This document shows, one piece after another, positions 23,137 through 26,022 of a DNA stretch of 64,000 bases. Position 1 is the first letter of the stretch. Each line of letters starts with the position of its first letter. The notes beneath the pieces were generated by a model. That model saw only the letters and a list, made by a program, of their open reading frames with translations, searched no databases and was not told the origin of the DNA. The stretch spans positions 64,001-128,000 of the forward strand of contig CAVYHV010000017.1 in assembly GCA_963768425.1 (NCBI GenBank), in the 5' to 3' direction. The position numbers and the translations under genes are program-made. This stretch comes from Candidatus Bathyarchaeota archaeon (GTDB lineage Archaea; Thermoproteota; Bathyarchaeia; Bathyarchaeales; Bathycorpusculaceae).

Positions 23137-25218
23137 TCAATGTTTCGCCTCTTTTTCACTTAGTTGCTCAAGCATAGTCACCAAGCTGTTGGTAGCTGGT
23201 AGGCAGGTCTGGTCGCGGCACACATAGGCAGTTGTTTTGCCTTCGATTTGCTGGTAACCTAAGCCTCCCTTATCTGGATGCTTAAGTTGGACTACGGTTG
23301 TTGGCAGGTAATGTTGCCTCAATATCTTGAGCATTTCTAGCGTGTCTTTTGAGTTGATGTCGCCGACGACTGTGACCATGTAGGATGGACCAAGCTGAAA
23401 GTCAAGTCCTGAGAGAAAGAACGTGTAGGCGTCGGGTGCCCCTTCAACTTCTGCAGCAAAAGTCTTAATCATTTGGGTTGCCATCTGGTCGTAAGTAGGC
23501 TCGTTGGTCAAGCGGCTAAGCCACAGCAAGTCAATAAGTGCCACTGAGTTGCCTGATGGAATTGCGCCGTCGTAGAGTTGCTTGATTTTAGGCATGCCCG
23601 CGGGTGCGCTTTGTGTTTGGTAGAATCCTCCGTTCTGCTTATCCCAAAACTTGCTGACCATGCTTTTAGCAAGGTCTGCGGCGGCTTGAAGGTACACATC
23701 ATTGAACGTTACCTCGTAAAGCTGCATTAACCCATACGTTAAGTAGGCATAGTCGTCTAGAAACGCCTCAATTGCAACTTCGCCTTTCGCGTAACGATGA
23801 TACAAAACATCGCCTTTGCGCATGTAATTCAATATGAAGTCTGCAGTCTTAGATGCCGCATTCAAGATACGCTGGGGTCCCAAACACACTCCCAGCTTTG
23901 GCCAAAGCTGCAATCATCAGGCCATTCCAATCGGCCAAGATCTTGTCATCAACCGGCTGGAGCAACCCGTTTCTGTCTCTGCTTTAAAAAGGGCATTTTG
24001 GATTTTTCCCATCTCCATAATCAGCTGATCGATTGTCAAACCCTTGTATGAAGCAAGGTCTTCAAGGGGTTCTGCGATGTGGAGAATGTTTTTGCCGTTG
24101 GCATGCCCTCTTTCGTCAGGGTAGTTTCCTTCTGGTTTTAAGCCGTAGAGGTGCACTGCCAGCTCTGCATCTGCAGGAGATAGAACATCGAGAACTTCAT
24201 CGACCGTCCACAGGTAAAATTTGCCTTCTTCACCCTCGGAGTCAGCATCCTGAGCTGAGAAAAACCCGCCTTCCCCACCCGCAGGCAAATCACGAAGAAC
24301 ATATTCTATTGTTTCTTTCGCTGTTATTTTGAACTTGGGCGCACCTGTCGCCTGATAGGCCTCAGCATACGCCATTATCAGCAACGCTTGGTCGTAGAGT
24401 GTTTTTTCGTAATGCGGAACTAGCCAGCTGGGGTCGGTGCTGTACCTGTGAAATCCAAAACCGAGTTGGTCAAAGATTCCGCCCAAACGCATTTGGCGTA
24501 AAGTGTTTTCAGCCATAGACAGCGCATTTTTCTCTCCTGTGTGAGAATAGTGACGCAGAAGATAGAGGATTTTGTGTGGAGTAGGGAACTTTGGTGCTGA
24601 CCCGAACCCGCCGTTTTCTTTGTCGTATTCCAGCTTTAGACGGTCGAACCCATCCTGCAAGACTTCTGTGGTTAGTTGGTTTTGGGGTGTTCGTTTTTCG
24701 ACGGCTTCTATGCGTGATTTGATGTCAGCGCCCACCATTTCCATTTGGGAACGCTGGGTTTTCCATATTTGCGTCACCTGCGGCACAAGATCCAGCATGC
24801 CGATTATTCCTGGCCGACTGTGTTTGGGTATGTAGCTCTGAGCATAAAATGGGTTCAATTTAGGCGTCATTATTATGTTAAGGGGCCAGCCGCAGTTTCT
24901 GCCCATAGCCTGGCAAACTGCCATGTACGAAGCATCTAAGTCTGGTCTTTCTTCGCGGTCAACCTTTATGCATACAAACGCTTGGTTAAGCAAATCTGCA
25001 ACTTGATTGTCGCTGAAGCACTCCATTTCCATGACGTGGCACCAGTGACAGGTCGAATAGCCTATGCTGAGGAAAATTGGCTTTTCTTCTGCTTTGGCTT
25101 TAGCTAAAGCTTCTTGTCCCCATGGGTACCAGTCTACTGGGTTGTAGGCGTGTTGGAGAAGGTAGGGGCTTTTTTCATTGATAAGCCTATTGGACTTTGT
25201 TTCCTGTTTTGGCTGCAT
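23137..25218 (-). CDS. Thioredoxin-domain protein YyaL/SSP411 (DUF255 plus six-hairpin glycosidase-like domain), frameshifted at about 23900-23960
   Basis: [71 protein letters not shown]. Confidence 0.93.
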
Positions 25219-25404
25219 AAAAGGTGCCTTCTTGTTTTCAATATGTTCAGTGTCTTTTATTAACTGTTAGGGTTTGGAGACTTCTTTTTTTCAACACGTT
25301 TACTTCTGATGAAACCCGCCATCCTATTGGGGTCTCTTCTTGAACGCGAAGGAAGCCTTGTCCAAGCTGCTGCCGAGCGCCTTTGAATTGAATAAACAGG
25401 GAAT

Positions 25405-25419
25405 GAAGAAATTTAAATA
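25405..25419 (+). promoter_or_regulatory. Archaeal BRE/TATA promoter for queT
   Basis: Purine-rich GAAGAAA followed by TTTAAATA (25412-25419); predicted start about 25441-25446. Confidence 0.6.
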
Positions 25420-25447
25420 GTTCTGGATTGATAGTTGCGTTTCTCGC

Positions 25448-25485
25448 GGTAGTTTCCGTATATAACCTACCTTAAAAAACCCGGG
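25448..25485 (+). ncRNA. preQ1-I (class I) riboswitch-like aptamer in the queT leader
   Basis: GGTAG-TTTCCGTATATAAC-CTACC-TTAAAAAAC-CCGGG: 5-bp P1, loop starting with U and ending with C, A-rich tail ending in C, loop UCCG complementary to tail CGGG; directly before queT. Confidence 0.75.
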
Positions 25486-25986
25486 TTGAATAAAATGAAA
25501 TTGAATGCCAAACAATTAGCTGTGATGGCTATCTTCGCCGCCTTGTACGCGGTTGGAGTTATTTTTTTGGCGCCCATAAGCTTCGGTCCAGGCCAAATAA
25601 GAGTTGCTGACGCAATGTTGCCTTTGACGATGATTTTTGGGCTTCCGAGCGCGTTTGGTCTCAGCTTAGGTTGCTTGGTCTCTAATATTTATAGTCCATT
25701 TGGAGCAATCGACATATTTGGTGGGGCAGTTGCAAATCTAGCCGCCTGCGTTCTAGGATGGTACATTGGAAGGAACGGAGGAAGGATTCTACGTTTTGCA
25801 GCAACCATTTTGCAGTCAGCTATAGTTGCTTTAATCGTTGGAACGTACCTTTCACCGTTGACTAGTGTGCCTCTGATGCTAAGCATATTCGGAGTGCTTA
25901 TTGGAGAAATCGTTGCAATCAACATCATTGGGTATCCACTTCAAGAAGCCATCAGGCGGAGCAAAATCTTCAGCAAATTCAGTTAA
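25486..25986 (+). CDS. queT: QueT family queuosine-precursor transporter (ECF S-component-like)
   Basis: AIFAALY, PISFGPGQIRVADA, GCLVSNIYSPFGAIDIFGG, GEIVA; start is TTG 25486 or ATG 25495. Confidence 0.9.
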   Translation: MNKMKLNAKQLAVMAIFAALYAVGVIFLAPISFGPGQIRVADAMLPLTMIFGLPSAFGLSLGCLVSNIYSPFGAIDIFGGAVANLAACVLGWYIGRNGGRILRFAATILQSAIVALIVGTYLSPLTSVPLMLSIFGVLIGEIVAINIIGYPLQEAIRRSKIFSKFS

Positions 25987-26022
25987 GAACTGGGTTTTCC
26001 CAAAAAAGCTTCTGCTTTTTTC

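Follow-up and report, generated by a model that had tools for sequence, protein, structure and literature searches.

The closest described counterparts of the leader element treated here are bacterial riboswitches. In solved structures of class I preQ1 riboswitches (preQ1-I, Rfam family RF00522), roles have been assigned to a ligand-pairing C, to a U of the loop segment L1 and to the last A of the linker. The preQ1-II riboswitch (COG4708 motif, RF01054), which occurs in Lactobacillales, stands upstream of QueT-family (COG4708) genes, sequesters the Shine-Dalgarno sequence (SD) in a pseudoknot and has a larger fold with an embedded hairpin. For archaea, few natural riboswitches are known as far as the available parts of two accounts go (PMC5473149, PMC11549558): the first gives TPP and fluoride riboswitches as common and FMN, Mg2+-I and guanidine-II riboswitches as occasional, the second names fluoride as the native archaeal riboswitch that has been validated experimentally, and a preQ class is mentioned in neither of these parts. 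The element described below would resemble the archaeal fluoride and TPP riboswitches as a cis-acting leader sensor, while ligands and folds differ. It lies upstream of the queT gene in a stretch of 64,000 nucleotides (nt) from a Candidatus Bathyarchaeota archaeon (assembly GCA_963768425.1, contig CAVYHV010000017.1, positions 64,001 to 128,000 of the forward strand), which we call the window. We use the term motif A for the conserved leader block, from the stem to CCGG, that precedes this queT and its orthologues.

Our comparisons of related loci indicate that motif A is a real, conserved element of the 5' untranslated region. We consider it probable, with considerable room for doubt, that it is a preQ1-I-like 7-deazaguanine riboswitch which would switch translation off and whose ligand would be preQ0 or a relative. 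Such a switch had been proposed from the letters of the window and a list of open reading frames (ORFs), without database searches (the original prediction), and the coordinates given then for stem, loop, tail, promoter and start codons all agree with the sequence. The parts of the locus are as follows:

25405-25419, plus strand: purine run resembling a TFB recognition element (BRE), followed by the TATA box, GAAGAAA-TTTAAATA; the TATA box TTTAAATA occupies 25412-25419.
25448-25452, plus strand: 5' strand of stem P1, GGUAG, which pairs with 25467-25471; its core GUAG occurs in 40 of the 42 unique copies of motif A.
25453-25466, plus strand: loop of 14 nt, TTTCCGTATATAAC.
25453-25455, plus strand: L1, UUU (UUU in 41 of the 42 copies, UUA in one).
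25456-25458, plus strand: 5' strand of P2 (predicted pairing), CCG, complementary to CGG at 25482-25484; its G stands 6 nt past P1.
25459-25466, plus strand: L2, UAUAUAAC, ending in C25466, the candidate ligand-pairing C.
25467-25471, plus strand: 3' strand of P1, CUACC, the partner of GGUAG.
25472-25480, plus strand: tail TTAAAAAAC, followed by CCGGGTTGA at 25481-25489.
25472-25481, plus strand: L3, the A-rich linker UUAAAAAACC; the A-run of the window reads UUAAAAAA(C).
25482-25485, plus strand: 3' strand of P2, CGG(G), within a conserved CCGG (CCGG in 41 of the 42 copies, CCGA in one).
25483-25489, plus strand: SD-like GGGUUGA, which overlaps P2 and lies 6-12 nt before the ATG at 25495.
25486 and 25495, plus strand: start codons TTG and ATG, respectively; the ATG at 25495 is the conserved start.
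25495-25986, plus strand: queT coding sequence of 163 amino acids (PF06177), with which the orthologues align from residue 1.

The pseudoknot complementarity is between TCCG of the loop (25455-25458) and CGGG (25482-25485) and includes one G.U pair. As judged from the position of the TATA box and the usual archaeal distance between TATA box and start, transcription would begin at about 25441-25445.

The evidence that motif A is conserved comes from its relatives. A search for QueT in the window's own genome and in 60 relatives from the same order (61 genomes) gave matches in 50, and the upstream DNA was examined at the 30 best of these loci. At seven of the 30, the window's own and six from the same genus, motif A is almost unchanged from GGTAG to CCGG; in the six relatives QueT has 59-77% protein identity and the sequence around the block differs throughout. 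A larger leader, here called motif B, precedes queT at 22 of the loci, and a third leader type at the remaining one. A protein-guided metagenome scan contributed at least 80 further QueT loci, while 198 more relatives were not among the matches listed. Of the rows in which the QueT alignment covers 130 residues or more, 63 have motif A, 36 motif B, three the third type and seven none of these, and three have too little upstream DNA. Altogether we collected 64 instances of motif A, 42 of them unique, before QueT orthologues that are 49-98% identical in protein, so that the conservation expected upstream of orthologous queT genes was borne out. In the 32 core positions, pairs of copies have a mean identity of 0.97; in the 30 nt upstream, for which 40 sequences have enough DNA, the mean is 0.35.

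The variation that does occur is confined to particular places. Apart from GTAG, the P1 core reads GTGG (with a G.U pair) in one copy and GCAG (with a C.A mismatch) in another. L2 is 7-9 nt long, variable in the middle, and ends in AAC in all 42 copies; the loop CCG is likewise present in all of them, a count that is not independent since the retrieval pattern demanded it. The length of L3 lies between 8 and 16 nt, and a run of six or more A closes it in every copy. In the 35 short forms, the letter after the A-run is C (18 copies), absent (10), an extra A (6) or T (1); seven of the 42 copies have other or longer forms of L3, and a G follows the A-run in one further copy. The CC after the A-run that had been pointed out in the window thus stands in part: CCGG is kept in 41 of 42 copies, but the letter that immediately follows the A-run varies or is missing. 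Since the length of L3 varies while A-run and CCGG are kept, it fits the linker of a pseudoknot. In the relatives, the GG of CCGG opens an SD-like sequence, GGUGA in 14 and GG(G/A)UUGA in 20 of the 42 copies. Upstream, 23 of the 42 have a TATA-like 7-mer whose end lies 26-29 nt from the stem, and none was found by pattern in 15. A promoter that would place the start of transcription a few nt before the stem, as had been suggested, is therefore supported by the TATA box conserved in relatives.

Motif A is also specific for its gene. With a covariance model of motif A (R2), the 2.96-Mb genome to which the window belongs gave this site only, at 79.6 bits, the next score being 17.2 bits. Among 151 genomes sampled evenly across the class, there were two strong matches, in the window's genome and in G337, both before queT. 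Six R2 matches of 21-25 bits at other loci (L266-L271) were rejected as noise: they are not before QueT and have no such loop. A pattern scan of genome contigs returned at least 119 stretches, mostly chance occurrences in bacteria, of which at least six are the motif after a stem filter. The matches in viral contigs, two with the motif A pattern and 18 with that of motif B, are attributed to chance because they lie in GC-rich or unrelated DNA without an A-rich tail and without QueT.

A few peculiarities of individual copies may be recorded here. A long-linker subgroup from metagenomes (L199, L204, L213, L215, L218 and L220) has linkers of 13-16 nt, an extra GC-rich hairpin directly 5' of P1 and no TATA box at the usual distance; its transcript probably starts further upstream. 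Motif A with queT was also found on L071, a record labelled as a Chloroflexia metagenome-assembled genome, that is 90% identical over 1,733 nt to L013 from Bathyarchaeia of the window's genus; this contig is probably mis-binned or mislabelled. Many motif A loci (L013, L014, L133 and others) read GAATGAAATGAG just before the QueT start. In GAATGAAATGAG, an out-of-frame ATG five bases before the real start opens a two-codon ORF (M-K-stop). The window does not have that upstream ATG and reads AATAAAATG.

The comparison with real preQ1-I aptamers was based on a reference set obtained by searching Bacillota genomes with RF00522 (18 matches, 16 of them unique, 29.7-55.9 bits). A piece of 47 nt from the window aligns without gaps with the 16 bacterial aptamers and is identical to them at seven of eight invariant columns. 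The seven comprise both letters of the G-C pair on the loop side of P1, the second U of L1 and four A in the linker; the eighth differs by a change from a G-C pair of P1 to A-U, which preserves pairing. Moreover, the loop-final C of the window aligns with the loop-final C of the bacterial aptamers, which makes C25466 the candidate for the ligand-pairing residue. The preQ1-I layout that had been noticed at this locus is thus shared with real aptamers. When a model built from the 16 aptamers (R1) was run with filters off on 2 kb, 25443-25489 came first with 15.5 bits (rough E 0.0029), followed by a match of 8.6 bits. In the opposite direction, R2 was applied to the 16 bacterial loci (48.7 kb), and seven of its 20 matches at E<=10, the top two included, lie exactly on the real aptamers; all of these matches are weak, at 6.8-14.7 bits.

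The likeness to preQ1-I (RF00522) therefore concerns both architecture and gene context. Both have a P1 of 5 bp closed by a loop-side G-C pair, a loop that starts with UU and ends with C, a G six letters into the loop that is able to start P2, and a linker with at least six A followed by a P2, predicted in motif A, of 3-4 bp that runs into the SD. Both are tied to 7-deazaguanine genes including queT, as described for preQ1-I in the part of PMC5372724 available. The closest members are the type-2-like and the translational ones of Bacillota. There are differences as well. Motif A scores below any reporting threshold of RF00522, whereas real members reach 30-56 bits; its P2 is CCG:CGG, and the real ones are UAG:CUA-like or weaker; one to three letters ending in an invariant C are placed between A-run and P2; L2 is long (7-9 nt), and P1 is near-invariant rather than covarying. 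Finally, the host is an archaeon with an archaeal promoter, and the expected ligand would be preQ0. Our reading is that motif A has the architecture and the key letters of preQ1-I in a sequence that lies outside the range recognised by the family model.

With Rfam 15, there were no matches in the whole window at gathering score, and 20 + 13 related loci gave just a piece of archaeal large-subunit (LSU) rRNA and two tRNAs. The weak matches on the leader at E<=10, to DdR1, SBWMV1_UPD-PKe and SAM_alpha, are unrelated and were discarded. Neither preQ1-II nor preQ1-III (RF02680) was found at gathering score, or at E<=10 on the leaders. Motif A shares with preQ1-II the position before QueT-family genes and, in its predicted fold, an SD in a pseudoknot; it differs from the larger preQ1-II fold, and at E<=10 preQ1-II matches neither the leader of the window nor a motif B leader.

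Motif B, the GGCGGGUGAG...CCGUUCCGCC leader that precedes queT and queC in archaea, probably represents a riboswitch class of its own. In it, GGCGGGTGAG is followed by a variable hairpin, then by CCGTTCCGCC and an A-rich stretch, and finally by CC(C)GG and a strong SD of the GGAGGUGA type. Its P1 is 100% paired, with double changes from G-C to C-G in three of 35 unique sequences and the same double change in further genomes, and its covariation score exceeds that of 500 out of 500 shuffles. The 3' half of the loop is complementary to the SD region, with a mean of -11.6 kcal/mol in the 35 sequences as compared to -7.0 kcal/mol with shuffled tails. Loops with two or three C go together with SDs that have two or three G, and in variants like L033 and L020 the complementarity is maintained by other letters. 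Motif B resembles motif A in its place, its gene family, a P1 of 5 bp, a loop CCG, the A-rich linker, CC(C)GG and the SD, and it has no Rfam match either (a weak match to a CRISPR repeat is all that its leader gave at E<=10). In contrast to motif A, it is about 70 nt long with the inserted variable hairpin, would work as a three-part switch of anti-anti-SD, anti-SD and SD, and shows compensatory changes in P1; its loop ends in GUU, that of motif A in AAC, and the preQ1-I model R1 does not match it.

Motif B is also the wider of the two: a sample of 401 genomes from across the phylum, with other classes among them, has its pattern in 51, versus two of 151 class genomes for motif A; a reversed control pattern occurred in none of the 401. 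Among the 61 genomes of the order it is present in 40, once in each except for two copies in G023. The copy of the window's own genome lies outside the window (G000:C17:45390-45420) and has CCCGG and GGAGG. At all eight of the additional loci examined from other genera and classes, QueT lies after motif B; in two of them QueC comes after QueT (202-220 bits). In G016, motif B is followed by a small ORF and QueC, in this order. The third QueT leader type (L018:1340-1500, L223 and L224) begins with a GGCGG...CCGCC hairpin and ends with a purine-rich SD region; it has no Rfam match.

The genomic context connects these leaders to the 7-deazaguanine pathway. The genome of the window has a second QueT, 43 kb upstream and outside the window, in an operon composed of motif B, a 40-codon ORF, a QueC-like gene and, in last position, QueT. 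The QueC-like protein scores 123 bits with Pfam and 96.6 bits with TIGR00364, the latter under the cut-off of 150. A QueD/PTPS gene is present as well, and QueF was not found in the pathway search. The presence of archaeosine genes in this genome had been put forward for checking: QueC-like and QueD-like genes are there, whereas TGT was not found in this 91% complete assembly. A TGT of the length of arcTGT is encoded in 56 of the 61 genomes. The gaps are in three of the seven motif A genomes (G000, G035 and G026, which are 91%, 82% and 96% complete, respectively) and in two of the 54 others, and these relatives are not independent of each other. The gaps may reflect incompleteness or a real loss of archaeosine insertion. 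As motif B also occurs before QueC, the regulation of these genes is tied to the 7-deazaguanine pathway, and the apparent regulon of motifs A and B, queT and queC, is a signature of bacterial preQ-type riboswitches.

Several results weigh against reading motif A as a preQ1-I-like riboswitch. On the 141 nt from 25380 to 25520, none of the preQ1 families matched at E<=10. The search with RF00522 that had been recommended gave no match for the site at gathering score (39 bits) or at E<=10, and in the own genome of 2.96 Mb the site is not among the ten matches of RF00522 (13.4-15.3 bits; 150 of 568 candidates scored). In 60 kb, R1 gave the variant copies 11.4-13.2 bits, which is the level of the A-rich background, did not match two of five variant loci and matched no motif B locus. 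An invariant C precedes the 3' strand of P2 where the 16 real aptamers have A, and the SD-like GGGUUGA of the window is imperfect. Folded by itself, 25430-25510 reaches a minimum free energy of -12.8 kcal/mol (z = -0.25), a value equalled or bettered by 78 of 200 shuffles. An alternative AACC:GGUU helix in this fold was dropped, as it is not conserved in relatives with GGUGA. In P1, 95.9% of the cells are paired, with one double change (A-U, in L196) and one G.U; the covariation is not significant, for 158 of 500 shuffles reach the observed score. P2 is invariant, and conservation is its sole support. The covariation check on P1 and P2 thus revealed none, both being near-invariant, and near-invariant palindromic arms fit a protein-binding site, too. 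The outer pair of P1 is G-C in 34, A-U in one and mismatched in seven of the 42 copies, one copy has a mid-stem C.A mismatch (L216), and another has CCGA in place of CCGG (L209). Lastly, TGT (PF01702) is among the genes not found in the window's genome.

An RNA reading of motif A nevertheless has indirect support: (i) the conserved block is long, asymmetric and more than two arms; (ii) the length of the linker changes while both ends stay fixed; (iii) the element has its place between a conserved promoter on one side and the SD with the start codon on the other; and (iv) motif B, at the same place and gene family, is under RNA-level constraints. These observations have to be set against the idea of a protein-binding site, either a DNA operator for a dimeric transcription factor, lying shortly after TATA box and start site and with the arms of GGTAG-N14-CTACC as half-sites, or an RNA hairpin for a translational repressor, which comes into play because the stem of motif A does not covary. 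In neither case would the RNA bind a small molecule. The near-invariance of the arms (GTAG/CTAC in 40 of 42), the mid-stem mismatch tolerated in L216 and the failure of Rfam to find a riboswitch here all agree with such a site, and archaeal repressors often act around a position like that of the stem, about +6 of the predicted transcript. Yet about 37 consecutive non-palindromic letters are conserved, including the 14-nt loop, the A-run and CCGG, and this exceeds two half-sites of 5 bp. The distance from stem to CCGG varies by 8 nt with both ends fixed, and a rigid operator is therefore unlikely. The position of the element with respect to SD and start codon is moreover constant, its columns resemble those of real preQ1-I aptamers, and motif B at the same gene has compensatory changes at the level of the RNA. 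Taken as a whole, we regard a protein-binding site as quite improbable.

A structured leader RNA of another kind, be it a riboswitch for a different ligand with a convergent look or a constitutive element for stability or translation, we would call unlikely, if worth keeping in mind. It would account for the modest covariance-model likeness to preQ1-I (15.5 bits at best, at noise level in the larger searches), for the lack of a match with RF00522, and for the CCG:CGG of P2 and the invariant C before it, in which motif A differs from the 16 real aptamers. The substrates of archaeal QueT are predicted, moreover, and even the bacterial assignments are called predictions in the part of PMC5372724 available. 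It accounts less well for the presence of motif A before queT only, in the own genome and in the sample of 151 genomes of the class, for the occurrence of motif B, the alternative leader of the gene family, before QueC as well, and for the invariant letters of preQ1-I that motif A has kept (closing G-C, U of L1, A-run) along with the loop-final C. A functionless chance hairpin beside an A-rich stretch, finally, is next to impossible. The single-sequence fold, which is no better than shuffles, would suit it, but it is excluded by conservation, with 97% identity in the core of the 42 unique copies against 35% in the flank, and by the single site per genome that is always before queT; a recent mobile transfer, which could have mimicked conservation, does not fit well with coding sequences that have diverged to 49-98% protein identity.

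We thus return to the preQ1-I-like riboswitch as the preferred reading. What we infer for motif A, from the pseudoknot and its ligand to the sense of regulation and the point where transcription starts, can be combined into the following proposal. Positions 25448-25489 would form the 5' end of the queT mRNA, with transcription starting a few nt before 25448. The nascent leader would fold P1 (GGUAG with CUACC) and give a small aptamer of the preQ1-I kind, an H-type pseudoknot. Binding of a 7-deazaguanine would stabilise P2 (25456-25458 with 25482-25484) over the A-rich linker, with L3 lying along P1. P2 would then take up the first two G of the SD-like GGGUUGA, or of GGUGA in the relatives, and translation of the QueT transporter may be lowered when the precursor is plentiful. 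The GGUGA of the relatives is a direct match to the GGAGGUGA-type SDs of the lineage. Transcription termination is unlikely since no T-run is present between the motif and the ATG. The likeliest ligand would be preQ0, because QueF was not found and because archaea use preQ0 for archaeosine, according to the part of PMC5372724 available; preQ1 or a relative may be bound instead.

The distribution of the leaders can be followed on a QueT tree of 99 proteins (quick maximum likelihood with IQ-TREE, Shimodaira-Hasegawa-like approximate likelihood ratio test (SH-aLRT) support, midpoint rooting), from which identical proteins and alignments of fewer than 130 residues were left out. All motif A QueTs are in one clade of 58 rows with an SH-aLRT of 95 (53 with motif A, three with too little upstream DNA and two leaderless), and this clade is nested among branches with motif B. 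A second, distant QueT clade, which includes the second copy of the window's genome, carries motif B, too. The topology points to a single replacement of motif B by motif A, in one lineage of queT. It is tempting to speculate that the archaea of this phylum rely on two or more RNA sensors of preQ0: motif B would be a new class of pseudoknot switch acting on queT and queC, present in about one eighth of the sampled genomes of the phylum, and motif A, as an offshoot of preQ1-I or by convergence, would have taken its place in that queT lineage with an altered pocket in which the invariant C stands for the bacterial A. We advance this wider idea tentatively, as something that could well be wrong.

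The identity of the gene and of its host bears on all of this. The ORF is QueT, as had been assumed: PF06177 matches with 105.6 bits (cut-off 33.7) over profile positions 1-140 of 141, while no NCBIfam model matched. On one side of queT lies a DUF255/thioredoxin-like gene, on the opposite side a PRC-barrel gene on the other strand, and this order of DUF255, queT and PRC is retained in the closest relatives. The records of the relatives are Bathyarchaeota or Bathyarchaeia and the queT locus of one relative carries the piece of archaeal LSU rRNA; together with the synteny, this tells us that the contig of the window is archaeal and not chimeric, in agreement with the archaeal host that had been deduced from the sequence. 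The DUF255/thioredoxin-like gene (23137-25218, minus strand) appears as two adjacent ORFs of 433 amino acids (23917-25218) and 258 amino acids (23137-23913), the latter with a weak glycosidase-like match alone; the pair may represent two real genes, or else one gene that is split or carries a frameshift. In one metatranscriptome run, a single contig of 190 nt covers 25820-26000 and not the leader, which speaks neither for nor against transcription of the latter or a start site there.

As had been supposed, no characterised archaeal riboswitch for preQ0 or preQ1 came up in our search of the literature, which did not extend to supplementary lists of riboswitches and motifs, and a switch of the motif A type is probably new in archaea, where such a sensor has not yet been described. 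If the preferred reading of motif A is true, one of the smallest known aptamer folds would be extended to a second domain of life, and the salvage of the archaeosine precursor would be subject to feedback at the RNA level. Nature would also have provided a test case for the adaptation of the preQ1-I pocket to preQ0, and archaeal genetics would gain a compact, ligand-controlled translation switch. Motif B widens the finding in that it may represent a new class of riboswitch whose regulon, queT and queC, is clear. Should the idea of two sensors hold, Archaea would have their first riboswitches for 7-deazapurines, and one sensor class would be seen to have given way to another at an orthologous gene.

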